A stretch of 22,492 bases of DNA, taken from the IMG/VR virus record IMGVR_UViG_2671180963_000005; one strand, 5' to 3'. The notes beneath the pieces were generated by a model, which made no database searches, was not told the origin of the DNA, and saw only the letters and a list, made by a program, of their open reading frames with translations. This document shows, piece after piece, positions 1-22,492 of this stretch. Every line of letters begins with the position of its first letter. Position 1 is the first letter of the stretch. The position numbers and the translations under genes were made by a program. This DNA is from a virus (lineage: Duplodnaviria; Heunggongvirae; Uroviricota; Caudoviricetes).

Positions 1-1284
1 TTACTTCTTCGCCTCTGCAACCACTTTACTACCCACGCCGCGGTTATTGTATTCCCACATGCGGTTGTAGTTAGTGTCATTCAGATTGCGCTGTATTTCG
101 TCGTTATCATCTACGCTGCCGGTATTACCCGCAAACGGACGATTAGAGATCACCGCATCGGCCCACGGTTTAGCCGTGTTAAAACCTTCGTTGATGGCGC
201 TATCACGGATCACCACCTGACCGTTGGTATTGGCATCAACATCCAGCGAGCGGCCCAGTTGCGCCACACCATCACCGAAAGCATTGAAACGGCTGTTTAC
301 GGCGAGGAAACCGTAGTAAATGTTGGACAGCGTAGCCGGTGCAAACACATACGCTTCTTGCTGAGTACGTGAGTTCACCACGCGGAATTCGGTGTTATCG
401 AACACCACTGCGCCGCGACCAGAAACGATATCCACATCCCCTTCAATGTAGCTGTTGGTCACCAGCGTACGCGGCTGACGATTTGTTTCCAGACGGTTCT
501 GCACACCGCTGTTGGTGACAAAGAAGGTGTTCTGACGACCGAGAATGTTAACGTTGTTAATCTGTACCTGGTCACCATCAGTACGCAGTGCCACCGCCGG
601 ATGGTTACCTGCATCTACGCTATCGCCCAGCGTGTTTTCGATGGTCAGATTTTGCAGTTGCAGGCCATTGTTTTGTGACCAGAAGACCGCAGAGCAGAGA
701 ACACCGATACTGTCGCTGCGTTTGCTCTGGCAGCTATCGTACATATACCACGCTGGTTTACCTGGCATATATTTGCCGCGCGGGTTGACGTCGTGACGCC
801 AGTCGGCAGGGCTCATGCCACCATCAAGGGAAAGCCCAATCTTCACATCAATCGGTTTTTCACCTGTACCGTACAGAGTAATTCCACCCGGAGCGGCAGG
901 GACATATACCGTTCCCTGATACTCACCAGGCATCACGGCAATATACTGGCGCTTGTTGGTACGCTTGATAATTGCCGCATCTACCGCCGCCTGAATCGTG
1001 GTATGCGTTACACCTTGAGTGCCCGCCGGGCCGACAACAAAGTCAGGTTGCGCAGGCAGGGTAATCGGGGAAGGATTCCACGCTGCAGCACCTGGTGTCA
1101 GGGATGCAAAATAGTGTTGAGCATCGAAATTCTGCGCTTCTTTTGCCGACAGAATCGGGCGAGAAGAGGTACCAGGCGCGGTTTGATCAGAAGGACGTTG
1201 ATCGGGCGGGGTTGAGCTACAGGCGGTCAGCGTCACGCCAAAAGCCAATGCCAGCGCCAGACGGGAAACTGAAAATGTGTTCAC
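1..1284 (-). CDS. ybhC: YbhC, pectinesterase-family outer-membrane lipoprotein (host gene flanking lambda attB)
   Basis: Complete 427-aa ORF with stop at 1-3; N-terminal signal peptide with lipobox LTAC; sequence recognised from memory as E. coli YbhC; its start lies 47 bp from the att core, as at the K-12 attB locus. Confidence 0.85.
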   Translation of the reverse strand: MNTFSVSRLALALAFGVTLTACSSTPPDQRPSDQTAPGTSSRPILSAKEAQNFDAQHYFASLTPGAAAWNPSPITLPAQPDFVVGPAGTQGVTHTTIQAAVDAAIIKRTNKRQYIAVMPGEYQGTVYVPAAPGGITLYGTGEKPIDVKIGLSLDGGMSPADWRHDVNPRGKYMPGKPAWYMYDSCQSKRSDSIGVLCSAVFWSQNNGLQLQNLTIENTLGDSVDAGNHPAVALRTDGDQVQINNVNILGRQNTFFVTNSGVQNRLETNRQPRTLVTNSYIEGDVDIVSGRGAVVFDNTEFRVVNSRTQQEAYVFAPATLSNIYYGFLAVNSRFNAFGDGVAQLGRSLDVDANTNGQVVIRDSAINEGFNTAKPWADAVISNRPFAGNTGSVDDNDEIQRNLNDTNYNRMWEYNNRGVGSKVVAEAKK

Positions 1285-4458: not shown

Positions 4459-4461
4459 CAC

Positions 4462-4872: not shown

Positions 4873-4991
4873 TATGGTAAGTCTAGTCTAAAAGCACGTG
4901 CATATTGTTTTTTTGTGCTGTATGTAAGTTACTCGTCGATCTGCAACTGTGAGTCTGGATAGCTTACAAAATAGAGTTGACACGTCCTTCA

Positions 4992-5684
4992 CTACCCATG
5001 CTTCCTATACGTCTGCGGCATGCTTCCGATGACTTTCCCGAAGATGAATACCCGGTTCATCTCGTCTTTCTCGATCGGGTCCCACGGTGAGTAGCTCTTG
5101 TTATCAGAGATAACTAGCAGCTTATCCTTCATCATTTGCAGGCGCTTTACATGGGCTGTGTCGTCATACAGAAACGCATAGATACCATCACCGTCGAAAG
5201 ATTTAACCGTGATATCAACGAACAGAAGATCACCTGGTTCGATCGTTCCTGACATGCTGTCACCGCGTACGTTAATGATGCGGATATTTTCTGCCTTCCT
5301 ACCATCGAACATGTGACGAGCATCGTCAAACGAGTACTCAACCGAGCGTAGAACTTCTACAAACTCACGGTTGATGACTCCCGGCCCGGCACTGACTTCT
5401 ATATCAAGAACGTCAATTTTGAAGTATTTTGAATGGCTGACAGCAGGCTTCCCTGATTGTTGACCGTCATTTCTCATCGGGCCTATGCCTGATGAGAGCC
5501 ATTCTGTTCGAACACCCAATGCATTAGCTATTTCAACAATTTTTGTTGAGCCGCGAGCGTTGCCGCTTGTCAGTCTCCAGATTGTGGGTTGAGCTACGCC
5601 AGACGCCTTTGCAAGAGCGCCTTGAGACATTCCAGATTGTTCCATCGCTAGGTTTAAGCGATCAGCAAGAGTTTCTTTTTTCAT
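4992..5684 (-). CDS. CI-like prophage repressor (HTH-XRE N-domain plus LexA/S24 peptidase C-domain)
   Basis: HTH MSQGALAKASGVAQPTIWRL; S24 motifs GDSM and K-R; divergent to a Cro-like gene; first ATG at 5684 (ORF track extends to a TTG at 5720); likely a leaderless or short-leader mRNA as for lambda cI. Confidence 0.8.
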   Translation of the reverse strand: MKKETLADRLNLAMEQSGMSQGALAKASGVAQPTIWRLTSGNARGSTKIVEIANALGVRTEWLSSGIGPMRNDGQQSGKPAVSHSKYFKIDVLDIEVSAGPGVINREFVEVLRSVEYSFDDARHMFDGRKAENIRIINVRGDSMSGTIEPGDLLFVDITVKSFDGDGIYAFLYDDTAHVKRLQMMKDKLLVISDNKSYSPWDPIEKDEMNRVFIFGKVIGSMPQTYRKHG

Positions 5685-5794
5685 AAGTTTTAATTTATAC
5701 GCTTGCGTATTGATGGTCAAAACACGTTTTGCTATTGCTTGGATTAATACGCATTGCTATTATTCATTCATTGCAATACCAATAGGAATTGATA
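5685..5794. promoter_or_regulatory. Divergent cI/cro promoter-operator region (OR-like): inverted repeat ATACGC-tt-GCGTAT at 5697-5710; TTGCTATT motifs at 5729-5736 and 5754-5761
   Basis: Perfect 6-bp inverted repeat with 2-bp spacer; repeated motifs shared with the 3141-3181 region; lies between divergently transcribed repressor and Cro-like genes. Confidence 0.6.
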
Positions 5795-6022: not shown

Positions 6023-6046
6023 ACTGCGGCGTTAACTGATAAGGCA

Positions 6047-6592
6047 ATGACTATGCAACCACTTACATACCAACAGACTAGCGGATTTAGCCCGACTGCG
6101 GTGATAAATCGTTCTCAAACAAAACAGGCGCCAGGCCACGAAAAAATCCGTGATGCCGTTCGCGCCTGGTCGGCTGCAGATAATCAGGATGTTGTTGCCG
6201 CACTCATTGTGAATGAGTATCGGGAGCAGGGCGGCGGCACCATCGATTTCCCTGATGATGTCAGCCGTGCACGCCAGAAGCTGTTCCGCTTCCTCGATAA
6301 CAAATTCGATTCTGAAAAATACCGAAATAACGTGCGTGAACTGACCCCGGCAATTCTGGCGGTACTACCGCTGGAATATCGCGGCCACCTGGTTGAGCAG
6401 GATAGCTACATGGCTCGGCTGGCTGAAATGGAAAAGGAACTCAGTGAGGCAAAACAGGCTGTCATTCTCAACGCACCACGCCACCAGAAACTGAAGGAGA
6501 TGAGTGAAGGCATTGTGTCGATGTTTCGTGTGGACCCGGATTTGGCTGGTCCACTGATGGCGATGGTCACCACCATGCTGGGGGCAATATGA
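6047..6592 (+). CDS. YdaT-like protein (CII-position regulator of Rac-type immunity regions)
   Basis: Central region IVNEYREQGGG…ELTPAILAVLPLEYRGHLVEQDS resembles Rac YdaT as remembered; located in the cII position between cro-like and O. Confidence 0.55.
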   Translation: MTMQPLTYQQTSGFSPTAVINRSQTKQAPGHEKIRDAVRAWSAADNQDVVAALIVNEYREQGGGTIDFPDDVSRARQKLFRFLDNKFDSEKYRNNVRELTPAILAVLPLEYRGHLVEQDSYMARLAEMEKELSEAKQAVILNAPRHQKLKEMSEGIVSMFRVDPDLAGPLMAMVTTMLGAI

Positions 6593-6678
6593 CAGGTTCG
6601 GAAATGGCGAAAGCCGGTCTGCGCGAACAGAACCGACTTTCAGGTGCAAATCGTAACACACTCATTGCGGGAGGAATT

Positions 6679-7608: not shown

Positions 7609-8306
7609 AAAACATCGCCGCACAGATGGTTAACTTTGACTGTGAGCAGATGCGCCGGATCGCCAACAACATGCCGGAACAGTACGACGAAAAGCCACAG
7701 GTACAGCAGGTAGCGCAGATCATCAACGGTGTGTTCAGCCAGTTACTGGCAACTTTCCCGGCGAGCCTGGCTAACCGTGACCAGAATGAACTGAACGAAA
7801 TCCGCCGCCAGTGGGTGCTGGCTTTTCGGGAAAACGGGATCACCACAATGGAACAGGTTAACGCTGGAATGCGCGTAGCCCGTCGGCAGAATCGACCATT
7901 CCTGCCATCACCCGGGCAGTTTGTCGCCTGGTGCCGGGAAGAAGCATCTGTTAACGCCGGGCTGCCAAACGTCAGCGAGCTGGTTGATATGGTTTACGAG
8001 TATTGCCGGAAGCGTGGCCTGTATCCGGATGCAGAGTCTTATCCGTGGAAATCGAACGCGCATTACTGGTTGGTTACCAACTTGTACCAGAACATGCGGG
8101 CCAATGCGCTGACTGACGCGGAATTACGGCGCAAGGCTGCCGATGAACTGACCTGTATGACAGCGCGAATTAACCGTGGTGAGACGATACCTGAACCAGT
8201 AAAACAACTTCCTGTTATGGGCGGTAGACCTCTAAATCGTGCACAGGCTCTGGCGAAGATCGCAGAAATTAAAGCTAAGTTCGGACTGAAAGGAGCAAGT
8301 GTATGA
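7605..8306 (+). CDS. P: Replication protein P (DnaB helicase loader)
   Basis: 233 aa, near-identical to lambda P as remembered (MKNIAAQMVNFD…AKFGLKGASV); ATGA overlap with the O stop. Confidence 0.95.
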   Translation: MKNIAAQMVNFDCEQMRRIANNMPEQYDEKPQVQQVAQIINGVFSQLLATFPASLANRDQNELNEIRRQWVLAFRENGITTMEQVNAGMRVARRQNRPFLPSPGQFVAWCREEASVNAGLPNVSELVDMVYEYCRKRGLYPDAESYPWKSNAHYWLVTNLYQNMRANALTDAELRRKAADELTCMTARINRGETIPEPVKQLPVMGGRPLNRAQALAKIAEIKAKFGLKGASV

Positions 8307-8605
8307 CGGGCAAAGAGGCAATTATTCATTACCTGGGGACGCATAAGAGCTTCTGTGCACAGGACGTTGCCGCGGTAACAGGCGCAACCGTAACCAGCAT
8401 AAATCAGGCTGCGGCTAAAATGGCGCGGGCAGGAATCCTGGTCGTTGATGGTAAGGTCTGGCGAACGGTGTATTACCGGTTCGCTACCAGAGAAGAACGG
8501 GAAGGAAAGGTGAGCACGAATCTGATTTTTAAGGAGTGTCGCCAGAGTGCCGCGATGAAACGGGTATTGAGGGTATATAAAAGAACATCAATGGGAACAC
8601 AATGA
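8303..8605 (+). CDS. ren: Ren (Rex-exclusion relief protein)
   Basis: 100 aa, close match to lambda Ren (MTGKEAIIHYLGTH…ATREEREGK…); ATGA overlap with the P stop. Confidence 0.9.
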   Translation: MTGKEAIIHYLGTHKSFCAQDVAAVTGATVTSINQAAAKMARAGILVVDGKVWRTVYYRFATREEREGKVSTNLIFKECRQSAAMKRVLRVYKRTSMGTQ

Positions 8606-8672
8606 TGAAACAGGTGAGTTGAGTTCAAACTGTAGTACAATTCTCTCCAGTTTGAACAGGAAAGAATATGCT

Positions 8673-9005
8673 ATGAATCCTTATATTTATCTTGGTGGTG
8701 CAATACTTGCAGAGGTCATTGGTACAACCTTAATGAAGTTTTCAGAAGGTTTTACACGGTTATGGCCATCTGTTGGTACAATTATTTGTTATTGTGCATC
8801 ATTCTGGTTATTAGCTCAGACGCTGGCTTATATTCCTACAGGGATTGCTTATGCTATCTGGTCAGGAGTCGGTATTGTCCTGATTAGCTTACTATCATGG
8901 GGATTTTTCGGCCAACGGTTGGACCTGCCAGCCATTATAGGCATGATGTTGATTTGTGCCGGTGTGTTGGTTATTAATTTATTGTCACGAAGCACACCAC
9001 ATTAA
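8673..9005 (+). CDS. emrE: EmrE small multidrug resistance efflux transporter
   Basis: 110 aa from the ATG at 8673, recognised as E. coli EmrE (MNPYIYLGGAILAEVIGTTLMKFSEGF… with Glu14); four TM helices; the ORF-track start at 8619 is an upstream extension. Confidence 0.95.
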   Translation: MNPYIYLGGAILAEVIGTTLMKFSEGFTRLWPSVGTIICYCASFWLLAQTLAYIPTGIAYAIWSGVGIVLISLLSWGFFGQRLDLPAIIGMMLICAGVLVINLLSRSTPH

Positions 9006-9260
9006 AAATAATTTGTTTTTAAACGACTAAAATATGGAGGCTCGTATATTTATATGGGCCTCGTTTTATGCTTTTTGTTAATGTCTTTAGTTTTTATTCA
9101 TTCTTTTGTGCTTTCAAGATTATGGTGTAAGAAAATTGCAATACGATTATTGTTGTATATTCAAGATAATGTGACCTTAATTGTCTTTTTAAATAAAAAT
9201 TAAACAAAAATTATATCCCACCACTAAGGTTTATAAAAGCATACGTTAGCAGGTGTCACC

Positions 9261-10787
9261 ATGAAAAAAGCCATAGCATATATGCGATTTTCATCACCAG
9301 GTCAGATGTCTGGTGATTCATTAAACCGCCAGAGAAGGCTTATTACTGAATGGCTAAAGGTAAATAGTGATTATTACCTTGATACCGTAACGTATGAAGA
9401 TTTGGGGTTAAGCGCATTCAATGGAAAGCATGCACAATCAGGAGCTTTTTCGGAATTTTTAGATGCTATAGAACATGGTTATATATTGCCAGGGACTACA
9501 TTGTTAGTTGAAAGTCTGGACAGACTTTCAAGAGAAAAAGTCGGTGAGGCGATTGAGCGTCTGAAATTGATTTTGAATCACGGTATTGATGTTATAACTC
9601 TTTGCGATAATACAGTCTATAATATTGACTCATTGAATGAGCCATATTCATTAATAAAAGCCATACTTATAGCACAAAGGGCAAATGAAGAAAGCGAGAT
9701 AAAGTCAAGTCGGGTTAAATTATCATGGAAGAAAAAACGGCAGGATGCACTGGAGTCAGGCACGATTATGACGGCGTCTTGTCCGAGATGGCTCTCATTG
9801 GATGACAAAAGAACGGCTTTTGTTCCAGACCCCGACAGGGTGAAAACTATTGAGCTAATTTTTAAACTCAGGATGGAAAGGCGCTCATTGAATGCAATAG
9901 CCAAGTATTTAAATGATCATGCTGTAAAGAATTTCTCAGGAAAAGAAAGTGCATGGGGACCTTCTGTAATTGAAAAATTATTAGCGAATAAAGCTCTGAT
10001 AGGTATATGCGTACCTTCATATCGTGCAAGAGGTAAAGGAATAAGTGAAATCGCTGGCTATTATCCCAGAGTCATATCAGATGATTTGTTTTACGCTGTG
10101 CAGGAAATTCGGTTGGCACCTTTTGGTATTAGCAATAGTAGCAAAAATCCTATGTTGATAAATCTACTTCGAACAGTTATGAAGTGCGAGGCTTGTGGTA
10201 ATACCATGATTGTTCATGCGGTATCTGGAAGTTTGCATGGCTATTATGTTTGTCCGATGAGAAGACTGCATCGATGTGACAGGCCATCAATAAAGAGAGA
10301 TTTGGTTGATTATAATATCATTAATGAGTTGCTTTTTAATTGTAGTAAAATCCAACCAGTTGAAAACAAGAAAGATGCTAATGAAACTTTAGAGTTGAAA
10401 ATTATTGAGCTCCAGATGAAAATTAATAATTTAATTGCTGCATTATCTGTTGCGCCTGAAGTTACCGCTATAGCAGAAAAAATCAGAGTATTAGATAAGG
10501 AATTACGAAGGGCTTCTGTATCATTAAAAACTTTGAAGAGTAAAGCGGTGAGTTCACTTGGTGATTTTCATGCTATTGACTTAACCAGTAAAAATGGGCG
10601 AGAGCTATGTCGTACACTTGCCTATAAAACATTCGAAAAAATCATAATCAATACAGATAATAAAACCTGTGATATCTATTTTATGAATGGCATTGTTTTT
10701 AAACACTATCCTTTAATGAAAACAATATCCGCCCAGCAGGCGATAAGTACTCTCAAATATATGGTTGATGGTGAGGTTTATTTTTGA
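9261..10787 (+). CDS. ybcK: YbcK-like large serine recombinase
   Basis: 508 aa; N-terminal resolvase catalytic domain (YMRFSSPGQ); matches DLP12 YbcK as remembered; AT-rich; follows emrE as in DLP12. Confidence 0.9.
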   Translation: MKKAIAYMRFSSPGQMSGDSLNRQRRLITEWLKVNSDYYLDTVTYEDLGLSAFNGKHAQSGAFSEFLDAIEHGYILPGTTLLVESLDRLSREKVGEAIERLKLILNHGIDVITLCDNTVYNIDSLNEPYSLIKAILIAQRANEESEIKSSRVKLSWKKKRQDALESGTIMTASCPRWLSLDDKRTAFVPDPDRVKTIELIFKLRMERRSLNAIAKYLNDHAVKNFSGKESAWGPSVIEKLLANKALIGICVPSYRARGKGISEIAGYYPRVISDDLFYAVQEIRLAPFGISNSSKNPMLINLLRTVMKCEACGNTMIVHAVSGSLHGYYVCPMRRLHRCDRPSIKRDLVDYNIINELLFNCSKIQPVENKKDANETLELKIIELQMKINNLIAALSVAPEVTAIAEKIRVLDKELRRASVSLKTLKSKAVSSLGDFHAIDLTSKNGRELCRTLAYKTFEKIIINTDNKTCDIYFMNGIVFKHYPLMKTISAQQAISTLKYMVDGEVYF

Positions 10788-10898
10788 GTAATAATCACTT
10801 TTTCAACCGTGCTATAGTAAGAAAGTTAGGTAAGTACAATAAAATTATCTATCCTGAACGAAGCGTCCTGAGCTATGGTTTTACTATAGGGACTGCCA

Positions 10899-11198
10899 AT
10901 GGATGCTGGCGTTCTCGTTCTAGCAGTTCAACAATACCCAATCACAAAACAATTCACTGATAACAAACTTTGTGCACGTGCTTGGTTATGGCGAGCAGGT
11001 GATGTGATGTTAACTGCCTGCCAGAACGTTACTCCACTACTTCAGGTTGCGGAGCACCGCGAAGCCGGCCGCTTTACTTCTATCGAGCAAGAATATCCCC
11101 AGATACTCAACAGAGCGCGAGCAATCCTCGCCAGAGAAACGGCACATGTAAAATTCCAGCCGTGGCTGGATGATAAGTGGAGTCGAGTGTTACCATAA
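10899..11198 (+). CDS. Hypothetical protein (99 aa), unknown function
   Basis: ORF followed by a terminator hairpin; no recognised homology; start uncertain. Confidence 0.35.
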   Translation: MDAGVLVLAVQQYPITKQFTDNKLCARAWLWRAGDVMLTACQNVTPLLQVAEHREAGRFTSIEQEYPQILNRARAILARETAHVKFQPWLDDKWSRVLP

Positions 11199-11240
11199 TT
11201 CCGTCAGAATCTGTTCCAATAAAGTCACTAGTTAGAAATA

Positions 11241-11279
11241 CTGCCAGCATTCTACGATGACGGAAGTGCTGGCATTTTT
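11241..11279 (+). terminator. Rho-independent terminator
   Basis: Stem TGCCAGCA (11241-11248) / TGCTGGCA (11266-11273) followed by TTTTTT, just downstream of the 99-aa ORF. Confidence 0.6.
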
Positions 11280-11456
11280 TGGGTAATATGCGAGTCCATT
11301 TCATAAAATACGGGTGCTGTAAACTGGACGATATAATCTAAAATATACCATTACCAGTAGCGTTCAAATCGCTATGTGCCGATACGGATAAAATTATATT
11401 GATTGTGCACATACCTTATTGGATATTACTGAGGGGTATTTATATAAGGTGTAACG

Positions 11457-11966
11457 ATGATGTGGAACTTTGACAGTGCCGACTTAAGTGCAATAGCAGC
11501 AGGTATTTCTGCGTTTGGCACATTAGCCGCAGCGGGGTCGGCGCTTGCAAGTTGGTACACGTCAAAAAAAGCGCTGCAGCTACAAAATAGAGTTTACCTT
11601 TATGAGTCTTTAAAGGCTTGCGCTGAGAGAGCCAATTCATCAGCTAAAGATAAGCGCGGATCTGAATGGAGCGTTAATGATGCAGCGGATATCATCAGGT
11701 GCCTAGTACGGGCGATGGAGATCATCAAGCAGGATAGCCAGCAGAAAGAAGGTAATCAGGCATTAATGTTGAAACAGTACTTTGTTAATCTGCTAATAAT
11801 GGAACTGTACGAGGAAGTTCATAACGGTGATGCGGCTGATTCTGTTTTTAAAAGTACGGAACCTACACAAGTACTTGATAACTTATGGAGCAAATGGCAG
11901 GAGGCTATAGCTTTTTTTGATATTTGGAATTACCCAGTTGCGACTGAGGAAGACTTGGCAGACTAA
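11457..11966 (+). CDS. Hypothetical membrane-anchored protein (169 aa): N-terminal hydrophobic helix, helical acidic C-domain
   Basis: SD AAGGTG upstream of the ATG; predicted TM segment AIAAGISAFGTLAAAGSALASW; no homologue recognised; sits in the nin-region cargo position. Confidence 0.55.
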   Translation: MMWNFDSADLSAIAAGISAFGTLAAAGSALASWYTSKKALQLQNRVYLYESLKACAERANSSAKDKRGSEWSVNDAADIIRCLVRAMEIIKQDSQQKEGNQALMLKQYFVNLLIMELYEEVHNGDAADSVFKSTEPTQVLDNLWSKWQEAIAFFDIWNYPVATEEDLAD

Positions 11967-12160
11967 TTTTCAGCACATTTGATTTCCAATAATCAACCAG
12001 CCATAATCATGCCATTGGGGCCTGAACAACTCCGGTGACTTCTGCGCTAAACGGGGACGTTTATGCGCACATACAATCCAACCTCTCTTCTCCATTCACA
12101 GATGCAGAAATGCACCTGCGATATTTTGCATCCAGCGTTTGATCTCTGCGGAGGTGAAGC

Positions 12161-12378
12161 GTGAACCTCCCACAAGATGGTATCAAATTGCATCGCGGTA
12201 ACTTCACCGCTATCGGTCGGCAGATCCAGCCTTATCTGGAGGACGGCAAATGCTTTCGCATGGTGCTTAAACCGTGGCGCGAGAGACGCAGTCTTTCCCA
12301 GAATGCACTCAGCCACATGTGGTACAGCGAAATCAGTGAATACCTCATCAGCAAGGGTAAAACGTTCGCCACTCCAGC
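12161..12378 (+). pseudogene. NinB/YbcN-family protein, N-terminal fragment only (truncated at a deletion junction)
   Basis: GTG start with strong SD GGAGGTG; about 70 codons resembling the DLP12 YbcN/NinB N-terminus (…RSLSQNALSHMWYSEISEYL…), then the frame runs into J-derived sequence and stops. Confidence 0.5.
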
Positions 12379-12381
12379 TTG

Positions 12382-13228
12382 GGTATCCGCACCGGCGGGC
12401 GCGTGCTGGCGGTAAACAGCCAGACCCGGACGCTGACGCTCGACCGTGAAATCACGCTGCCATCTTCCGGCACCACGCTGATAAGCCTGGTTGACGGGCA
12501 GGGGAGTCCGGTCAGCGTGGAGGTTCAGTCCGTCACCGACGGCGTGAAGGTGAAAGTGAGCCGTGTTCCTGACGGCGTTGCTGAATACAGCGTATGGGGG
12601 CTGAAGCTGCCGACGTTGCGCCAGCGCCTGTTCCGCTGCGTGAGTATCCGTGAGAACGACGACGGCACGTATGCCATCACCGCCGTGCAGCATGTACCGG
12701 AAAAAGAGGCCATCGTGGATATTGAGAACACCCCTGACGGCATGCAGAGTCAGGTGCTGCTGGCGGCGGACAGGATTGCGATGGTTAATCCTGCGAATGG
12801 CAACACAAAACCGATGTTTGTTGGTCAGGGCGATCAGATATTCATGAACGACGTGTTCCTGAAACGCCTGACGGCCCCCACCATTACCAGCGGTGGAAAT
12901 CCACCGGCATTTTCCCTGACACCGGACGGAAAGCTGACCGCTAAAAATGCGGATATCAGTGGCAGTGTGAATGCGAACGCCGGGACGCTCAACAATGTCA
13001 CGGTAAATGAAAACTGTACGATTAAGGGCATGCTGGAGGCGACTCAGGTCAGAGGTGACTTCGTTAAAGCTGTATCCAAATCATTCCCGAAACAGGCTGG
13101 TACGTGGGGTAATACGGAAACACCAAACGGGACGGTTACAGTCACCATCAGCGATGATCATAACTTTGACCGTCAAATCATTATTCCGCCCATTATCTTT
13201 AACGGAATAGCGTATAGCGATCCGGGAA
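12382..13228 (+). pseudogene. J: Tail tip/host-specificity protein J, C-terminal remnant (N-terminal ~700 codons missing, internal gap, C-terminal end replaced)
   Basis: Translation matches lambda J segments [30 protein letters not shown]…[29 protein letters not shown] and …[54 protein letters not shown]…DDH.FDRQI; no start codon or upstream J sequence. Confidence 0.8.
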
Positions 13229-16078
13229 GTGGTAATAACCGATGCTGCAGGCTCAGCACGTGCCGCCAGCACGTCAGCCGGACAGGCCGCGTCGTCGGCT
13301 CAGTCAGCGTCTTCCAGCGCAGGAACGGCATCGACAAAGGCCCGTGAAGCAGCAAAAAGTGCTGCTGCAGAGTCCTCAAAAAGCGCGGCAGCTACCAGTG
13401 CCGGTGCGGCGAAAACGTCAGAAACGAATGCGGCAGCGTCACAACAATCAGCAGCCACTTCTGCATCCGCCGCGACCACGAAGGCGTCAGAAGCAGCCAC
13501 CTCAGCCCGGGATGCGGCGGCCTCAAAAGAGGCAGCGAAATCATCAGAAACGAACGCATCATCAAGCGCCAGTAGTGCCGCTTCCTCGGCAACGGCGGCA
13601 GGCAATTCCGCGAAGGCGGCAAAGACGTCTGAGACAAACGCCAGGTCTTCTGAAACGGCAGCGGGACAGAGCGCCTCGGCTGCGGCAGGCTCAAAAACAG
13701 CGGCTGCGTCGTCTGCCAGTGCCGCGTCAACAAGTGCCGGGCAGGCCTCAGCCAGTGCCACCGCCGCCGGAAAATCGGCAGAAAGCGCCGCATCGTCTGC
13801 TTCAACAGCCACAACGAAGGCTGGCGAAGCCGCTGAACAGGCCAGCGCAGCAGCGAGGTCTGCATCCGCAGCGAAGACATCCGAAACGAACGCGAAAGCC
13901 TCGGAAACCAGTGCAGAATCCTCAAAAATGGCAGCTGCATCGTCCGCCAGTTCGGCGGCGTCATCGGCATCATCTGCGTCTGCTTCAAAAGATGAGGCGA
14001 GCAGACAGGCATCAGCAGCGAAAGGCAGCGCCACGACAGCATCCACGAAGGCGACAGAGGCAGCTGGCAGTGCGACGGCGGCATCTCAGAGCAAAACTAC
14101 TGCTGAATCCGCTGCGACCCGTGCGGAAGCTGCTGCTGATCGTGCTGAAGAGATTGCCGGTGCAGTTGCGATGGAAGACGCAAGCCTTACAACTAAAGGT
14201 GTTGTGAAACTTAGCAGTGCTGTTGATAGCACCAGTGAATCGCTGGCCGCAACGCCAAAAGCAGTTAAAGCAGCCAATGACAATGCGAATAGCAGGGTGC
14301 CATCTAACCGAAAAGTTAACGGAAAAGCACTGACTGCGGATATAACATTAACGCCGAAAGATATTGGTACTTTAAATTCAGTAACGATGTCTTTCTCTGG
14401 CGGGGCTGGGTGGTTCAAACTGGCTACGGTTACCATGCCACAAGCGAGTTCCATCGTTTACATCGCATTGATTGGTGGCGCTGGTTACAACGTCGGTTCC
14501 CCACATCAGGCAGGCATTTCAGAACTGGTTCTACGAGCAGGCAATGGAAACCCCAAAGGAATTACCGGGGCTTTGTGGAAGCGTACAGCCGTCGGATTAA
14601 CGAATTTCGCCTGGATCAACACATCCGGCGATACATATGATATTTACGTTGAGATTGGCAATTATGCGACGAGTGTAAATATCCATTGGGATTGTACTGC
14701 AAATGCGTCAGTTTCTGTTTATACCTCGCCAACATATTCAGCGAGTAAGCCTTCCAGCGTTACCTATGGTGTTGTTTATACGATGTATAGCTCACATCAG
14801 AAACCTACACCATCAGATATTGGAGCACTGCCAACAACCGGAGGAACAGTTTCAGGTCCGTTGTCTGTTACAGGTGGATTAACTGGTTCATTGAATGGTA
14901 ATGCAAGTACAGCCACGAAATTGCAGACGGCAAGATCTATCGGTGGAGTTGTTTTCGACGGTTCTGCAAATATTAACCTTCCAGGTGTAAACACTACGGG
15001 TAATCAGAACACCACTGGTAATGCTGCAACTGCTACAAAACTCCAGACTGCAAGAAAAATATCCGGTGTTCCATTTGATGGTTCCAAAGATATTACTTTA
15101 ACCGCCGCGCATGTGGCTGCTTTTGCCAGAAGGGCAACGGATACATATGCCGATGCGGATGGTGGCGTTCCCTGGAATGCCGAATCAGGCGCTTACAATG
15201 TCACCCGCTCTGGCGACAGCTATATTCTGGTTAACTTCTATACCGGAGTCGGAAGTTGCCGGACCCTGCAGATGAAGGCGCATTACAGAAATGGTGGTCT
15301 GTTCTACCGTTCTTCAAGAGACGGTTATGGTTTTGAGGAAGGCTGGGCAGAAGTTTATACCTCGAAAAATCTTCCACCAGAAAGCTACCCAGTCGGCGCA
15401 CCAATCCCGTGGCCATCAGATACCGTTCCGTCTGGTTATGCCCTGATGCAGGGGCAGACTTTTGACAAATCTGCTTACCCGAAACTTGCAGCCGCTTATC
15501 CGTCAGGCGTGATCCCTGATATGCGTGGCTGGACGATTAAGGGCAAACCTGCCAGTGGTCGGGCCGTATTGTCTCAGGAACAGGACGGCATTAAATCGCA
15601 CACCCACAGCGCCAGCGCATCCAGTACGGATTTGGGGACGAAAACCACATCGTCGTTTGATTACGGAACCAAATCCACGAATAACACCGGGGCGCATACC
15701 CATAGTATTAGCGGGACCGCAAATAGTGCCGGTGCGCACCAACACAAGAGTTCCGGTGCATTTGGTGGCACGAACACGAGCATTTTCCCTAATGGTTATA
15801 CCGCGATTTCAAATCTAAGCGCGGGGATTATGAGCACAACAAGCGGTAGTGGCCAGACTCGTAATGCAGGGAAGACATCATCAGATGGTGCTCATACCCA
15901 CTCGCTGTCCGGCACTGCTGCAAGCGCAGGCGCACATGCACATACTGTCGGTATTGGTGCTCATACGCACTCCGTTGCGATTGGCTCACATGGACACACC
16001 ATCACCGTTAACGCTGCTGGTAACGCGGAAAACACCGTCAAAAACATCGCATTTAACTACATTGTGAGGCTTGCATAA
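13229..16078 (+). CDS. stf: Side tail fibre protein Stf, 5'-truncated relative to lambda Stf (possibly non-functional)
   Basis: 949-aa ORF from a GTG; homology to lambda Stf begins at its residue ~128 (VTDA…[17 protein letters not shown]); Ala/Ser/Thr-rich repeats (AKTSETNA); C-terminus with His-rich GAH(T/A)HS repeats and …[25 protein letters not shown] as in lambda. Confidence 0.8.
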
Positions 16079-16662
16079 TGGCATTCAGAATGAGTGAACA
16101 ACCACGGACCATAAAAATTTATAATCTGCTGGCCGGAACTAATGAATTTATTGGTGAAGGTGACGCATATATTCCGCCTCATACAGGTCTGCCAGCAAAC
16201 AGTACCTATATTGCACCGCCAGATATTCCGGTAGGCTTCGTGGCTGTTTTCAACAGTGATGAGGCATCGTGGCATCTCGTTGAAGATCATCGGGGAAAAA
16301 CCGTCTATGACGTGGCTTCCGGCGACTCGTTATTTATTTCTGAACTCGGACCTCTACCGGAAAATATCACCTGGTTATCCCCGGAAGGGGAGTTTCAGAA
16401 GTGGAACGGCACAGCCTGGGTGAAGGATACGGAAGCAGAAAAACTGTTCCGGATCCGGGAGGCGGAAGAAACAAAAAACAGCCTGATGCAGGTAGCCAGT
16501 GAGCATATTGCCCCGCTTCAGGATGCTGCAGATCTGGAAATCGCAACGGAGGAAGAAACCTCGTTGCTTGAAGCCTGGAAGAAGTATCGGGTGTTGCTGA
16601 ATCGTGTTGATACATCAACTGCACCTGATATTGAGTGGCCTGCAATCCCTGTTATGGAATAA
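16078..16662 (+). CDS. tfa: Tail fibre assembly protein Tfa
   Basis: 194 aa, near-identical to lambda Tfa ([24 protein letters not shown]…); start overlaps the stf stop (TAATG). Confidence 0.95.
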
Positions 16663-17022
16663 TAGTTTTGTGATATGCCGCAGAAACGTTATATGCAATA
16701 ACGTGCTGCGGTTGGCTGATGTACTTTCGAGAGTGTATTGAATAATTTCCAACCGTCATTAATTTTATTTATTTTTTGTATGAGAGGATTTGAACCTCCG
16801 AGCCTCGACACCTTATGACAACGCGATATTGCCTTGATGACCGCCATGTGCCAAAATAACCAATTGATAAATAAGTTGATTTTAATTGGTTGGAAGCAAG
16901 TCAGGTCAAATTCAGCATTCCGCTCTCTGTATCGGATAGTTAAATTTTTCTATAACTGATAGTAATATGTTAAAACTCACACAGATAAATTATCATTGCT
17001 CAACAAGTATAATGGAGTTCCC

Positions 17023-18978
17023 GTGGATACAGCAGAACATGATGGCAAGTTTGCTTGGGCTAGTTTTTATGAGGCTTTTGCCAACGCGTTACTGACTTGG
17101 CGAAATCGTAGAGATGAATTAGTCAAAGGTATTCATCTAATTGCCTCGGGTGTGGAAGGAATGTCCCATCTGCAGGACAAATCTATTATGGGAGAGATCT
17201 TTCCCTTAAAAGACATTTGTCCGTTTACTACTATGGGCTTGTTCAATCGTAACTTGACCGACAGCAATCGCAAAATTATTGCTGCCAAGCTAGCGAATTT
17301 GTTGGGCGTGAACGAACCGATTCCTGACTCCTTTGCCGGAATCCCTCTGTTGAATAACCAAAAATCTTGGTTCTTTGGTTATGAAAAGTCACGCGACCCT
17401 AATGACATTGAATGCTTGTGGGAAATGTTCTCACAGGCAATGATCTTTGCGGATAACCAGAATACTAACTCTGCAGACTTCACTGCCGCATATGACATCG
17501 CTTCTACAGTAATGAATGTCGGTTGGAATCTCACCATGGGGTTGTACTGGACCCGTCCTTGGTTCTACCCCACTTTAGATAGCCAGTCGCAGTATTACAT
17601 TCAGACAGTGTTAAACATTAAGATCATTAAAAACGGGGCAAAAGGTCGCTGTAGTGGACAAAGTTACCTGAGTCTTATGCGGGCGCTGAACGAGGTCTTT
17701 ACCCAACCAAACTATCCGGTTCATTCTTTCCCAGAACTTTCCTTATCAGCGTGGAATACAGATCTTAGCCAGTCTAAAGATGAGGTGGCAAATAGAACGT
17801 GGAAAGCCTCTTTACTGAATAAAATTAAGGCGTTATGCCTGAAAAAAAATGGCCCTTATTTCACTGCTTCGGAGTTGGAAGAAAACTACTTGGACGTATT
17901 CAAGGTAGAGCATCCTGAGAGCAAAACTGTTACAAGCTCAATCTACTTTTATCTACAGAAACTATGCAATGATGATGAGTTAAAGTCCCTCGAGTCCGGA
18001 AATTATGAATACCTGAATTTTGAGAAAAACGAATCCCAGACGATAACTGAGGAAACTGTCGAAGAGAGTGCGCTGTTGCCAAAACTCACCCACGTTCCTT
18101 ATGACATCAGTCATCTGGTGCAGGATGGCTGTTTCTTGGAAGAGGCTAAGATCCAACTCACACTTCAGCGCCTGATCGACAAGAAAAACCTGATATTACA
18201 AGGACCACCCGGAACTGGAAAAACTTGGTTAGCGCGACGTCTGGCGTACTGCTTGATGGGAGAAAAAGCACCTGAGCGTATTAGCGCGGTGCAATTTCAC
18301 CCGAACCTCTCTTACGAAGACTTTATTCGAGGCTGGCGTCCAGGTAAAGAAGGGCAATTGACGCTAATTGATGGACCTTTTGTAAATGCAATCAAAACTG
18401 CAGTCAATAATCCTACCTCGAAATATGTGGTGATAATTGAAGAGATTAATCGTGGCAATCCGGCGCAAATCTTCGGTGAAACACTCACGTTGATGGAAGC
18501 AGATAAACGCACGCCGACTGAGGCATTATCTCTTTCCTATCCTAAAAATGCTGATGAAAAAATATACATTCCTGAGAATCTATATATCATCGGTACGATG
18601 AATATTGCAGACCGCTCACTCGCACTACTTGACCTAGCGCTGCGCCGTCGTTTCGCGTTTATCGATCTAAAGCCAGCTTTTAATGACGCGTGGAGAAACT
18701 GGGTAAATTATAATTACGCAATTGATTTTGACATGTTAGCATTCATCAAATCTCGACTGACGGTATTAAACGATATGCTGGCAAAAGATGTTACCTTAGG
18801 ACCACAGTTTTGTATCGGTCACAGCTATGTCACCCCAGCTATCGGCCAAAAAATCAACGATGCCCAGGCTTGGTATGAACAAGTCGTTGATACAGAGATC
18901 TGCCCTTTGCTCGCCGAATATTGGTTCGATGCTCCAAATAAAGTCGATGAAGCCAGAAAAGTGTTATTAGCAAAATGA
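17023..18978 (+). CDS. McrB-like AAA+ GTPase subunit of a type IV (modification-dependent) restriction system, with a long unrecognised N-terminal domain (~380 aa)
   Basis: C-terminal half aligns with E. coli McrB GTPase motifs: GPPGTGKT (Walker A), VVIIEEINRGN, NIADRS, LRRRF; start taken as the GTG at 17023 after SD GGAG (ORF track begins at a TTG at 16996); N-terminal region unlike K-12 McrB-N. Confidence 0.85.
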   Translation: MDTAEHDGKFAWASFYEAFANALLTWRNRRDELVKGIHLIASGVEGMSHLQDKSIMGEIFPLKDICPFTTMGLFNRNLTDSNRKIIAAKLANLLGVNEPIPDSFAGIPLLNNQKSWFFGYEKSRDPNDIECLWEMFSQAMIFADNQNTNSADFTAAYDIASTVMNVGWNLTMGLYWTRPWFYPTLDSQSQYYIQTVLNIKIIKNGAKGRCSGQSYLSLMRALNEVFTQPNYPVHSFPELSLSAWNTDLSQSKDEVANRTWKASLLNKIKALCLKKNGPYFTASELEENYLDVFKVEHPESKTVTSSIYFYLQKLCNDDELKSLESGNYEYLNFEKNESQTITEETVEESALLPKLTHVPYDISHLVQDGCFLEEAKIQLTLQRLIDKKNLILQGPPGTGKTWLARRLAYCLMGEKAPERISAVQFHPNLSYEDFIRGWRPGKEGQLTLIDGPFVNAIKTAVNNPTSKYVVIIEEINRGNPAQIFGETLTLMEADKRTPTEALSLSYPKNADEKIYIPENLYIIGTMNIADRSLALLDLALRRRFAFIDLKPAFNDAWRNWVNYNYAIDFDMLAFIKSRLTVLNDMLAKDVTLGPQFCIGHSYVTPAIGQKINDAQAWYEQVVDTEICPLLAEYWFDAPNKVDEARKVLLAK

Positions 18979-20096
18979 CGACAATAACCGGGAGTGAGCA
19001 ACATACAGCATCACGTATTCCCATGCGAAATATCTGGATGCTGATGCTGTACGCTTCAGATCTGTTTCGCCAGTTAGGACGCAATCAGATCGCAGTAGAA
19101 GATAACCCAGCAGAAATCCCCGACCTGGTGGCGACAATCCTCCTTCATGAGATTACGCTGCGCCGACGTCGCAATTTAAATATGGGATACCAAACTTGTC
19201 ATGCGGCCCTGAACCGGGTGAGAGGGCGCATTGACATACTGTATACTGCCAGTCATCAACTGCTGGAACGGGGACAGGTTGCCTGCCATTTTCAAGACAT
19301 AACCCTCAACACCCCCCGAAATCGCTATGTTCGCTGTGCGTTAGAACGTCTGGCCTCAATCATAGTGAAACCGTCTTTGGCGGCAGATTGCCATTTTATG
19401 GCAATATCACTTCGCCGTGAGGGGATAAATGGAGGATATCCTGCCCCCCGCGAATTACCCTCAGTGTGGCGTTTTGGACGCCATGATGCCGCAGATAAAC
19501 CGATGGTCGATGCCGCACGATTAGCTTTTGAACTGCTGATGCCGACCGAAGATCAAGGCCAATATCTTTTACCTGCGCCCTCAAATAACCTTTACTGGAT
19601 GAGAAGACTATTTGAAAAAGGTATCGCTGGCTTATATCGTGTACACCTTGCCAAAACAACTTGGCAGGTCTCTGCAGGGAAAGAGCTGAAATGGGCGTTG
19701 AGCGATCAAAGTGCAGGTAGTGCAGAGATTTTCCCGACAATGAAGTCAGACATTATTCTGGAACACAAGACTGCCCAGCGGCGTATTATTATCGATACCA
19801 AATTTAATTCGATTCTGACAAAGGGTTGGCATCGGGAGCAATCACTACGTAATGGCTATATTTATCAGCTATATACCTACCTTAGAACACAGGAGAACAA
19901 GACGGATCCGCTTTCGCTCAATGCCGCTGGTCTTCTACTTCATCCAGCTGTTGGCTATATGCTTAATGAGTATGTTGTCACTCAGGGACATAAGATCCAT
20001 TTTGCTACAGTAGATATGACGGTAGATGCTAAAGCAATTAAAAAACAATTGCTGGCAATAGCCCATGATTGTGCAGGAGTCGCGGTTGATGACTAA
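18975..20096 (+). CDS. McrC-like nuclease subunit (PD-(D/E)xK) of the type IV restriction system
   Basis: 373 aa; ATGA overlap with the mcrB-like stop; N-terminal IPMRNIWMLMLYA resembles McrC IPVRNIYYMLTYA; C-terminal PD…D-x-K candidates (KSDIILEH…IIIDTKF). Confidence 0.8.
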   Translation: MTTITGSEQHTASRIPMRNIWMLMLYASDLFRQLGRNQIAVEDNPAEIPDLVATILLHEITLRRRRNLNMGYQTCHAALNRVRGRIDILYTASHQLLERGQVACHFQDITLNTPRNRYVRCALERLASIIVKPSLAADCHFMAISLRREGINGGYPAPRELPSVWRFGRHDAADKPMVDAARLAFELLMPTEDQGQYLLPAPSNNLYWMRRLFEKGIAGLYRVHLAKTTWQVSAGKELKWALSDQSAGSAEIFPTMKSDIILEHKTAQRRIIIDTKFNSILTKGWHREQSLRNGYIYQLYTYLRTQENKTDPLSLNAAGLLLHPAVGYMLNEYVVTQGHKIHFATVDMTVDAKAIKKQLLAIAHDCAGVAVDD

Positions 20097-20796
20097 CCAT
20101 CCTATAAGGCACTGGCTGTAATATAATCAATAGTTTCAATTAAGTAGCTGTTATCCGTGCTTAGTCATCATATGACGCACCACGGTCTAATTTTCCTGCT
20201 CATACATTGATATATCCTTGTCGTGCCCGGAAAGTCGCAGTCCACTATGAGGTATACCGATTGCCAGCACCAAAAGCTTCTTTGTGATTATTATATCGGG
20301 GAATGCCTATTTTTTTAGTGACAATATCAGATAGCAATTAATAAGCGGTGCCGGTAATGGATGTTATGTTTAATGTATAGACACAGCCATCATAAACTAA
20401 ACGTCTGTTGTTCGCTCATAACCGACATTTATCTCAGTTATGGAGGATAATTATGTATGCAGATAATGGGGCAGACAGTCGTGGAGTAAACAAGGTTTTG
20501 CACTGCTTGGCGGCATCGTTATCTTATTTTTAATTATGTGCCTCTTAACATAAGTTGGGACAAAACAGAGACACATAAGGTCTCACAAAGGTCTGCAAGG
20601 CCTCACATGTATTGAGATGTTAATAAAATGTAGACTTGTAATTTGGATATAAATGGTAGAGAAAACCTTTCCCCAAAATAAAAACGAACGTCAATGAAAT
20701 CAAACGGTTGAATAAAGTTTATTTTGGCTAATAAAAAGACAATAAAATAATTTTTATCGTTAAATATCAATGACTTGAATTCATGGTTTTTATATA

Positions 20797-20961
20797 CTGC
20801 TGCGCCATATGGGTTGGACTGAAGCGGCTGACCTGATTGTTAAAGGTATGGAAGGCGCAATCAATGCCAAGACCGTAACTTATGACTTCGAACGTCTGAT
20901 GGAAGGCGCTAAGCTGCTGAAATGTTCAGAGTTTGGTGAAGCGATCATCGAAAACATGTAA
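20797..20961 (+). pseudogene. icd: 3'-terminal fragment of icd (isocitrate dehydrogenase; last ~52 codons plus stop), phage-borne attP-type copy as in e14/phage 21
   Basis: Translates to [54 protein letters not shown], matching the Icd C-terminus with D-to-E substitutions; no upstream icd sequence. Confidence 0.85.
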
Positions 20962-20983
20962 TCTCTCCATGTGTTAAATATTG

Positions 20984-21016
20984 AAACGGGCGTATAACAC
21001 GCCCGTTGTTTTATTT
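20984..21016 (+). terminator. icd-type rho-independent terminator
   Basis: Perfect 9-bp stem AACGGGCGT / ACGCCCGTT with a 5-nt loop followed by GTTTTATTT, 23 bp after the icd-fragment stop. Confidence 0.8.
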
Positions 21017-21063
21017 ATGTGGATATTATTAATAGCATATCGAGCATATTTATATGAAGCCCA

Positions 21064-21387
21064 TTACTTGAGCCCATATGGGCATATTTTTATAATGCAA
21101 CTATTATGTAAACATTTATTTGTTATTTTGCTTTCTCCTGGAGGACACTCTTGACTGCTTTTGAGTAAACTCCATAAATCCTTGTTGAATGGTGCGATGT
21201 GATAAATAGTAATAGGATATTCTTTATCCTTAAGGATAATACCAGACTTAACCGGTGTAAATATACTGCCAGGAGGGAGAAATATAGTAGATTGATACCA
21301 GATGATCATTTTCATATTACCCCATATGGCTGAAAAAGATATACCACATGTAGGTTGAATTACCGTGTCAATTACTATCCACTTCAT
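21064..21387 (-). CDS. Hypothetical protein (107 aa), AT-rich, unknown function
   Basis: ORF only; no clear SD; no recognised homology. Confidence 0.25.
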
Positions 21388-22087
21388 TTGTTATGTCTTA
21401 TCCCACGGTATTTAATATGGTTCATTAGGATGTTTATTTCTTGATTTTGCATATGAGTATATTACCCCCCCCCTCAAAAAAATAAATTAATTAAAATGAT
21501 GGCTTATATAAAATAAAATTTAAAGCAAGGAATCTCAATGGATGTTAAACAAAATGAGATTTTGTGAAAGCAATAAATTATTGACTTCGTTTTAGATTTG
21601 TTTAGCTATAATGTTATACATTCAAATGACTGAACATCCTGTAATTAAAACATAGCCTTTATGCTACTTTGTGCCAATTTGCTAAACATTATGGTTGCCT
21701 TTTTATATAACGATAATAATGAATATAAGCATGACATGAGAATAAGGTTTCAATTTTTGAGTTATATAGGAATGATTTAACCTGTTCCTGGCTAAAATAC
21801 ATATAACCGGATGATGACTAAACCAAAATACATGTGCGTTAAGTATTGAAACGGACGTGTGGCACGGCCGTTGTTTTTATAAATATGTTAACCGTTATAA
21901 AATAACGTATCAAAAGTCAAGTGATCACATTTCAAATATCAAGTTGATAGTATTAGTCTGGTGATTATTTATGGGTGACAATAAAAAGACAGTATTAATC
22001 ATCCATAGAGATAGTCTCTGCACTTTTATTTCCATTATGCTAATGCCTTACTGAATTATGAAGCATTTCTTAAGTATCCAACTTTAG

Positions 22088-22492
22088 CTAGATTAATGGT
22101 TTATTATTTTCTACATCTTCAATATATAAAAGCGTATTATCAATGGCGTAGTAACTGCGTTTGTTATGATTAACATCAGTAACCCACCGGAAAACGCCCG
22201 CACCTGCCAGTGTTGAACAGTATTCCCGAAGTGTAGATTTTCCGCAAATATGAAGCAATGCGGCCTCTTTTATTTTAGCAGGGTTCTTGGTCGTACTAAC
22301 TTTTAACAGGTTCCTGGTTCCTCTTAATAACAAAACCGTATCATCGTGAGTAATAATTCTGATGTTATCCGTAGCCAGATAATAAATGTAATGTGCAATA
22401 CGGTGATGTTTTAATTCTGAATAAAACCAGGAGAAGTTTTGCTCTTTTCTCACTTGCTCAAACATCTTTTGAAAAACAACGACCTGATCCAT
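22088..22492 (-). CDS. Hypothetical protein (at least 134 aa); start codon at the window edge, may extend beyond it
   Basis: ORF with Met at the last window codon; no recognised homology. Confidence 0.3.
   Translation of the reverse strand: MDQVVVFQKMFEQVRKEQNFSWFYSELKHHRIAHYIYYLATDNIRIITHDDTVLLLRGTRNLLKVSTTKNPAKIKEAALLHICGKSTLREYCSTLAGAGVFRWVTDVNHNKRSYYAIDNTLLYIEDVENNKPLI

Follow-up and report, generated by a model that had tools for sequence, protein, structure and literature searches.

A prophage-borne McrBC-family gene pair at the icd locus of Escherichia coli carries DUF8425 and a DpnI-type winged helix ahead of its GTPase domain

Introduction

To our knowledge, McrBC is the textbook type IV restriction enzyme, only a handful of alternative reader domains have been characterised for its family, and in every characterised McrB the domain outside the GTPase is the DNA reader. 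The alternatives include the YTH domain of a Thermococcus gammatolerans McrB, the PUA-like domain of Staphylothermus marinus McrB, and the B3-like domain of LlaJI.R1. Here, a McrB-like gene and the mcrC gene following it are described from a 22,492-nucleotide stretch of viral DNA from E. coli (IMG/VR record IMGVR_UViG_2671180963_000005), referred to in its full length as the window. The pair, carried by a prophage, probably encodes a McrBC-family enzyme of type IV, which depends on DNA modification and has the DUF8425 domain as its main reader.

EcoKMcrBC of K-12 shares with the window pair the AAA+ GTPase motifs, a downstream McrC with overlapping start and stop codons and a PD-(D/E)xK site, and the lack of a cognate methyltransferase. 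It differs in its reader, a DUF3578 5-methylcytosine domain of ~160 amino acids (aa) where the window protein has ~360 aa of DUF8425 and winged helix, and in its location in the immigration control region, while the window pair is prophage cargo at icd. In the YTH-, PUA-like and B3-like McrB homologues, too, the GTPase motor stays constant and the N-terminal reader is exchanged. Their readers are single small beta-rich domains of known fold, whereas the window protein has two domains, the larger of which is all-helical. EcoKMcrA of the e14 prophage resembles the window pair in its type IV function, predicted for the latter, and in being the last cargo before a duplicated icd fragment, but it is an unrelated single-chain protein with a NEco reader and a HNH nuclease. 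CoCoNuT, a RNA-targeting McrBC subclass, is marked by a NxD signature and by coiled-coil and CSD domains (PMC11090510), while the window protein has the signature N-I-A-D (NxxD), no such Pfam domains, and no long coiled-coil-type helix in its N-terminal model.

The group to which the window pair belongs was named by Helbrecht et al. 2024 (PMC11037411), who listed "NTD-wH-NTPase" proteins paired with McrC bioinformatically and left them uncharacterised after one failed purification. The E. coli protein of the window is not listed in the supplements of that paper, and the window member differs from the group in residing in a Dam+ host and in its aromatic Y-F-Y recognition helix. An initial annotation, made from the letters of the window alone, had pointed out an unusual N-terminal architecture. 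This is confirmed here, but the architecture is less novel than was assumed, as it had already been listed as NTD-wH-NTPase plus McrC (PMC11037411).

Domain architecture of the McrB-like protein

The McrB-like gene (17023..18978, +) encodes 651 aa with the domain order DUF8425, DpnI_C winged helix, AAA_5 GTPase, and McrB lid, the domain names being taken from homologue loci. DUF8425 occupies aa 1-250 (17023..17772, +). It was modelled by AlphaFold with a predicted local distance difference test score (pLDDT) of 93 and a predicted template modelling score (pTM) of 0.91 as about ten helices and a small hairpin, and PF28527 is recorded on its homologues. A confident AlphaFold model of the N-terminal region (62 sequences, pLDDT 89) consists of three parts: a mostly helical part at aa 1-246, a part with the order helix-strand-helix-helix-strand-strand at aa 252-330, and a disordered linker at aa ~340-360.

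No match to the N-terminal ~360 aa was found at E<=0.001 in the Pfam-A copy, NCBIfam, or the PDB sequences, which included full-length K-12 McrB (6ut6). When N-terminal segments were re-scanned at E<=10, DpnI_C alone came up, and below threshold (E 0.042; 14.5 bits against a gathering score of 23), and domain search and structure prediction gave no full-length alignment of the region to a characterised McrB sensor. The initial annotation was therefore right that the region is unlike the K-12 reader of ~160 aa and more than twice its size. It had also considered the N-terminal domain unassignable, which holds in part only, since the second domain is a DpnI-type winged helix and the first is Pfam DUF8425, a family that is recognised yet uncharacterised.

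Distribution and conservation of DUF8425

A phmmer search of 1.84 billion representatives identified 1,949 DUF8425 members at E<=1e-3. AAA_5 was also present in 54 of 60 sampled full-length members. The linker between DUF8425 and the GTPase was shorter than 40 aa in 147 of 182 fusions, which therefore have no other domain between the two, and an insert of at least 80 aa, as in the window protein, occurred in ~30. The profile envelope began at most 30 residues from the N-terminus in 121 of 258 full-length copies, an approximate count because the envelope takes in part of some N-terminal extensions. Among viral contigs of IMG/VR, 40 carried DUF8425, and in 39 of these a McrB GTPase occurred in the same open reading frame (ORF) with McrC following. 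A winged helix was found by HMMER with a winged-helix profile in only nine of the 40 contigs, all from E. coli. No DUF8425 carrier was detected among the isolated phages of INPHARED, in which only the GTPase part finds relatives.

The polar residues R30, D64, N75, R76, R83, R124, D128, R178, and D186 are each conserved in at least 85% of DUF8425 sequences, a pattern better suited to a site for binding or catalysis than to an inert spacer. As DUF8425 is the sole non-GTPase domain in most family members, a role as reader of DNA or of its modification would be the most economical inference.

Besides the fusions to a GTPase alone, DUF8425 was found in tandem copies with or without a GTPase, with Mrr_N or HTH_24 additions, with TPR repeats (P0123, behind TPR arrays), with a KAP/QatA-like NTPase (P0223), and in "FRG domain" proteins on Bacteroides plasmids (hits H60 and H62). 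One tandem DUF8425 protein (P0244), the sole such relative, matches Pfam DUF6308 above the gathering score, which suggests that DUF8425 and DUF6308 are related families. No mention of DUF6308 was found in the literature searched.

The DpnI-type winged helix

The second domain (aa 252-330; 17776..18012, +) is, as judged by profile comparison, a winged helix homologous to the C-terminal domain of DpnI. Pfam DpnI_C, at 14.5 bits on the window protein, scores 36 bits on P0002 and 47 bits on P0057, which are 56 and 42% identical to the window protein over the N-terminal region, respectively. A direct alignment of P0057 with the winged helix of DpnI was also obtained (E 1.8e-6), and a profile of nine such winged helices retrieves genuine DpnI-family proteins (PF06044 and PF17726) at E 1e-9 to 1e-12. 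In DpnI (PF17726; PDB 4esj/4kyw) the winged helix is joined to a PD-(D/E)xK domain, while in the window protein it is joined to a GTPase.

Both methyl groups of G6mATC are read in DpnI by the recognition-helix residues E228, K229, R231, Q232, and Q235 (PMC3424567). The window protein has S, S, Y, F, and Q at these positions, so that four of the five pocket or GATC-contact residues are replaced. Alignment and column counts place its recognition helix YFYLQKL (17944..17964, +) where DpnI has RQQLQIL. The last four pocket positions are conserved as K, R, Q, and Q in 112-120 of the 120 relatives compared (motif K-I-R-Q-Q-L-Q), K-I-R-Q-Q is present in 112-117 of them, and Q235, which the window protein retains, is invariant in all. 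At the E228 position, D (72) and A (30) predominate, and E is found in just 6. The only other carriers of the window helix S-I-Y-F-Y-L-Q among these relatives are the three closest, near-identical fragments (79-98%), one of which is named E. coli. A third pattern, T-[ILV]-x-R-[QNH]-[LFM]-Q, was seen in the non-enteric NTD-wH-NTPase relatives.

E. coli is Dam+. Because the pocket residues are replaced and the pair is stably carried in such a host, it would not be expected to read G6mATC, and Dam sites are an unlikely target of the winged helix.

A glycosylase-like lead for DUF8425

Foldseek of the DUF8425 model against solved folds returned no significant match, the best being SsOgg (3fhg; E 0.28, probability 0.63). 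Of the 46 top matches, 44 were glycosylases of the HhH-GPD type, namely SsOgg, MjOgg, TmOgg, OGG1, and MutY. Alignment of the DUF8425 profile by hhalign to the single sequences of Nth, MutY, and AlkA found nothing, and a suggestive but not significant similarity was obtained with a 3-sequence and then an 83-sequence EndoIII-type profile. The latter consisted of E. coli Nth, MutY, and AlkA with 80 Nth orthologues and stayed shallow because a GTDB scan gave only Nth orthologues at >=67% identity. The score against the Nth family was 23.7 (P 0.01, probability 4%), compared with a mean of 13.6 (standard deviation 2.4, maximum 22.5) for 150 column-shuffled DUF8425 profiles, none of which (0/150) reached 23.7. 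The reversed profile scored 11.9 and unrelated real profile pairs 16-17, and DUF8425 residues 60-135 alone scored 23.2 (P 0.002).

The most conserved block of DUF8425 in the conservation table (aa 66-130: CPFTTMGLFNR...NRK.IA..LA...P.SF.GIP...R..D128; 17218..17412, +) is also the part with the best, though weak, alignment to EndoIII. The aligned EndoIII region includes the helix-hairpin-helix and the catalytic Asp, and the motif equivalences are putative. The best register places CPFTxxGxFNR..NR..IA..LA...P on IKTIGLYNSKAENIIKTCRILL...VP of EndoIII, G106-I-P on the G-V-G hairpin, and D128 on the catalytic D138, with the Asp 22 residues after the first Gly in both proteins. A second register, with the hairpin at 165-168 and D186 as the Asp, fits the helix-hairpin-helix-loop-helix of the model better and scores worse. 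No Lys of DUF8425 aligned with the catalytic Lys of EndoIII/OGG1 in either register.

A relationship of DUF8425 to the HhH-GPD glycosylases is a weak but coherent lead from sequence and model, which we rate as a little better than an even bet. According to a 2025 preprint (PMC12191111), the END nucleases detect a variety of hypermodified phage bases with an inactivated EndoIII/Ogg ("iEndoIII") domain, and fusions of this sensor to McrB-like GTPases exist as well, which makes the lead more plausible. Compared by description (PMC12191111), the END nucleases have in common with the window pair, a predicted anti-phage nuclease, a sensor that is all-helical and glycosylase-like in some features, putatively so in the case of DUF8425, but END enzymes are single-chain PLD or NucS-like nucleases, while the window system is a McrB-like protein paired with McrC.

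Gene structure, GTPase motor and McrC nuclease

The mechanical ORF of the McrB-like gene (16996..18978) encodes 660 aa from a TTG. However, GTG 17023 is the most likely start, since a GGAG Shine-Dalgarno sequence (17013..17016, +) lies 6 nucleotides 5' of it, the N-termini of the closest homologues P0001 and P0002 (MDAAEKDGRFAW...) agree with it, and RefSeq WP_000379040.1 uses it. The mcrC gene (18975..20096, +; 373 aa) was identified by Pfam McrBC, NCBIfam McrC, and alignment to K-12 McrC (6hz4_M). Its ATG overlaps the TGA stop of the McrB-like gene in an ATGA (18975..18978, +), and the identical overlap of 4 nucleotides is found in the homologous loci L085-L087 (Leclercia-type and metagenomic). 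In RefSeq the mcrC start varies by genome between 19023 and the overlapping ATG (357 aa vs 373 aa), and 18975 is preferred because the overlap recurs in the homologue loci. Both ORFs lie where the initial annotation had placed them (16996-20096), and its proposal of translational coupling agrees with the conserved overlap.

The McrB AAA+ GTPase domain and lid (18100..18951, +) were delimited by Pfam, NCBIfam, and PDB-sequence matches and by motifs. Walker A (GPPGTGKT, 18202-18225, +), Walker B (IIEEINR, 18427-18453, +), the NxxD signature (MNIADRS, 18598-18618, +), and the RRRF arginines (18637-18654, +) were all located. Residues 369-652 in the 660-aa numbering, ~290 aa at the C-terminus, align to K-12 McrB AAA+ structures (6hz4, E 5.6e-76), the match to 6hz4_A covering residues 378-652, and AAA_5 matches at E 8e-27. 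The full protein falls below the cut-off of the NCBIfam McrB equivalog NF008457 (262.5 vs 637 bits) and matches profile positions 176-452 only. McrC matches Pfam McrBC at E 5e-21 and lies above the cut-off of the NCBIfam McrC equivalog (356 vs 338 bits), with only distant overall similarity to K-12 McrC (E 2.6e-15). Its PD-(D/E)xK motif D259...D274-T-K276 (19743-19805, +) aligns to that of K-12 McrC. The earlier assignment of McrB GTPase motifs to the C-terminal half and of a McrC-like nuclease downstream is thereby sustained.

When the window proteins were searched against PADLOC-DB v2, only partial "REase_II" matches on the ATPase and no match for McrC were obtained, and PHROGs did not recognise the pair as a defence system. 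No methyltransferase adjoins the pair in the annotated neighbourhood of the complete genomes RM10410, NCTC9100, and BA92 or in the homologue loci, of which three were checked that represent two contexts, two of them lying on the same Leclercia-type contig. From its sequence features, the pair has the structure that defines a McrBC system, but its McrB-like protein is not an orthologue of EcoKMcrB.

Prophage setting and prevalence

A degraded lambdoid prophage at icd ends, ahead of attR, with this gene pair. The last structural gene 5' of it is the tail fibre assembly gene tfa (16078..16662, +; an ORF, "tail fiber assembly protein" in RefSeq), and 3' of it follows the right prophage junction with the duplicated icd 3' fragment (20795..20961, +), identified by blastn to K-12 and containing the icd' ORF at 20809-20961. 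By blastn, homology to K-12 restarts at 20795, which is the exact right end of e14. The K-12 gene order at this junction is tfaE-stfE-pinE-mcrA-icdC-iraM, and that in RM10410, NCTC9100, and BA92 is tail fibre, tfa, McrB-like, McrC, icd' fragment, iraM. As homology resumes at the right end of e14, the analogy to mcrA in e14 that the initial annotation drew for a pair between tfa and the icd fragment is correct, and both the junction and the gene order agree with it. G+C content is 43-47% in the pair, 36% in the flanking spacers, and 52% in the tail-fibre genes, a contrast typical of prophage cargo.

Of 5,426 complete E. coli genomes, 305 (5.6%, ~1 in 18) hold the 3.3-kb segment of the pair with an identity of >=99%. 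It was always chromosomal, occupied 307 places in the 305 genomes (single-copy bar one exception), and was essentially full length in 289. The pair occupied the same slot in all three genomes inspected, and the surrounding prophage was heavily degraded, with insertion sequences and truncated integrase and tail genes. In RM10410 (L001), the icd prophage holds IS2, IS3, and ISVsa5 insertions beside an intact tfa and pair. In BA92 (L090, 1223-2263), the prophage is reduced to fused fragments of replication P and tail genes, and tfa and the intact pair remain, which argues for retention by selection.

Several further features were recorded in the vicinity of the pair and in the remainder of the window. 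A strong match to Rfam IS009 (214 bits, gathering score 117) lies inside the 3' end of tfa (16421-16619, +). The spacer 5' of the McrB-like gene holds a stretch that resembles the 3' half of a tRNA (~16775-16850, -; ...GGAGGTTCAAATCCTCT...). Because of a GGTTCAAATCC-like stretch, the presence of a tRNA gene 5' of the pair had been considered; it was rejected, as none was found by ARAGORN or Rfam, and the stretch in the spacer may be an attachment-site remnant or a tRNA fragment at the edge of the cargo cassette. A large serine recombinase of 508 aa (9261-10787, +; ybcK-like, with Resolvase, Recombinase, and zinc-ribbon domains) lies mid-prophage in a stretch of 35-37% G+C (8500-11000), and the annotation of RM10410 has emrE and ren immediately 5' of this recombinase. 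This stretch looks like another acquired block.

The window joins an attB-lambda flank (1-8000), with a ybhC-like pectinesterase (1..1284, -) and a lambda-type integrase, to the icd flank (7371-22492). In complete E. coli genomes, both flank parts lie in separate prophages ~1.4 Mb apart in opposite orientation, and in no complete genome does a single piece cover more than 67% of the window. Both prophages share the replication O/P region around 7371-8000, and the joining has the appearance of an inversion caused by recombination of two lambdoid prophages, or else of an assembly chimera. In the integrase ORF (1419-2579, -), 64 N-terminal residues with a match to PF06064, the Gam host-nuclease inhibitor of phages (E 1.8e-38), precede a lambda-type Int. 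The ORF appears to be a gam'-'int deletion fusion from which xis, exo, and bet were removed. Three small ORFs occur in an island of low G+C (34-36%) at 3350-4872 (-), of which 3850..4461 matches the MqsA antitoxin family. The island may be another cargo or toxin-antitoxin module beside the CI-like repressor (4992..5720).

Discussion

The analysis shows the architecture of genes and domains, the integrity of the catalytic motifs, the degree of conservation, and the location in the genome. A mechanism can further be proposed that follows K-12 McrBC in assembly and cleavage. By homology, the McrB-like subunit with GTP would form hexameric rings, McrC would insert into them and stimulate GTP hydrolysis, and the PD-(D/E)xK site of McrC would cut DNA following translocation from bound sites. 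Target choice would differ, with two domains in series replacing the K-12 methylcytosine reader (DUF3578). DUF8425 would be the main reader of a foreign DNA modification, perhaps by a diverged HhH-GPD (EndoIII/Ogg-like) base-inspection fold. The winged helix would be an added second reader or a remnant that does not bind the Dam-methylated GATC of the host. The target would be a modification absent from E. coli DNA, thus neither Dam nor Dcm methylation, and the RmC sites of K-12 McrBC are probably not the target because the DUF3578 reader is missing. Candidates would be hypermodified pyrimidines or purines, or adenine modifications outside GATC, and a lysogen would be protected against phages or plasmids with modified DNA that K-12-type McrBC, McrA, and Mrr miss. 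A more specific form of this proposal, in which DUF8425 is a highly diverged HhH-GPD reader or excisor of hypermodified phage bases, represents with ~2,000 clusters the most frequent uncharacterised reader of McrB GTPases, and acts with a re-specified winged helix in a dual-reader type IV enzyme of a target range unlike that of McrBC, McrA, Mrr, and GmrSD, is tentative and, taken as a whole, somewhat doubtful.

A number of results weigh against this proposal. HMMER searches of the window DUF8425 and 26 diverse members against Pfam, including HhH-GPD (PF00730) and the OGG-like PF21790, gave no match to these at E<=10. NCBIfam gave no match for the DUF8425 of the window protein and nine full-length relatives, and no match to the PDB sequences was found with the DUF8425 family profile. 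The hhalign probability of the HhH-GPD link is only 2-13%, and for helical proteins the column-shuffling control is a lenient one. Two registers are possible, with D128 and D186 each ~22 residues past a hairpin-like G-x-x motif. Many DUF8425 proteins have extra N-terminal or inserted domains, which would also fit DUF8425 as a constant scaffold with specificity supplied elsewhere. The winged helix, in turn, lacks three basic residues of the recognition helix (the equivalents of K229, R231, and R241), and both it and DUF8425 carry a small net negative charge, so that it may no longer bind DNA. With its basic character reduced, the remodelled helix may recognise a different feature or have ceased to read DNA.

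The role of DUF8425 as main reader must be weighed against a winged helix that is itself the true specificity module, reading N6-methyladenine or a related base outside GATC, with DUF8425 being structural, regulatory, or involved in oligomerisation. All characterised DpnI-type winged helices sense 6mApT (PMC11037411), the window domain is clearly homologous to that of DpnI and keeps Q235, and DUF8425 often stands beside other candidate readers, among them Mrr_N, HTH_24, DUF4357, and N-terminal extensions of ~100-160 aa that have no assignment. However, most DUF8425-McrB proteins have no insert before the GTPase and no winged helix by the HMMER profile, and would then lack any reader. The window domain reaches only 14.5 bits against DpnI_C with the three basic positions lost, and only ~10% of winged-helix fusions keep the DpnI 6mA/GATC motif, the target of the rest being unknown (PMC11037411). 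This explanation is therefore considered unlikely. Still less probable is an active DNA glycosylase, in which DUF8425 would excise a modified phage base and the abasic sites would then be processed or sensed by McrBC. The weak similarity of DUF8425 is to the HhH-GPD glycosylases, both candidate catalytic positions are acidic (D128 in 85%, D186 in 92% with a further 6% Glu), and defence against phages by DNA glycosylases is established (Brig1, cited in PMC12191111). Yet the glycosylase fold of DUF8425 is itself a lead, the catalytic Lys has no counterpart in either register, the related END sensors are without catalytic residues and described as inactive (PMC12191111), and conservation of an Asp at the N-terminal end of a helix may have structural reasons alone.

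The least probable explanation, which we regard as very improbable, is that the pair is a non-functional or re-purposed prophage relic, for example an addiction or abortive-infection module with a trigger other than modification, which would not restrict modified DNA. The decay of the surrounding prophage and the lack of recognition as a defence system by PADLOC-DB v2 and PHROGs would fit such a relic. Against this, neither ORF is truncated and no catalytic motif is damaged, the pair is >=99% identical in 305 genomes and retained where neighbouring phage genes were lost, and the two-gene module recurs in ~30 further unrelated viral contigs and on plasmids. A modification-dependent enzyme with DUF8425 as main reader is the reading preferred here.

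While the architecture of NTD-wH-NTPase with McrC was already known, the identification of the NTD as DUF8425 and the wide, McrB-specific distribution of this domain are added here, as are the glycosylase-like lead, the loss of the DpnI pocket residues, and the "mcrA slot" context with its prevalence. DUF8425 appears to be among the most widespread uncharacterised McrB readers and is found here in a genetically tractable host. The pair is common, intact, and missed by the PADLOC-DB v2 models, and its target is directly testable in E. coli. If DUF8425 is a glycosylase-derived sensor, the recently described END nucleases would be linked to the much larger McrBC family, and there would be a natural case on which to study how the Dam-methylated DNA of a lysogen escapes restriction by the lysogen itself. 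Knowledge of the target would explain a share of the strain-to-strain differences in phage and plasmid susceptibility, with relevance for host range in phage therapy and for the transformability of wild isolates.

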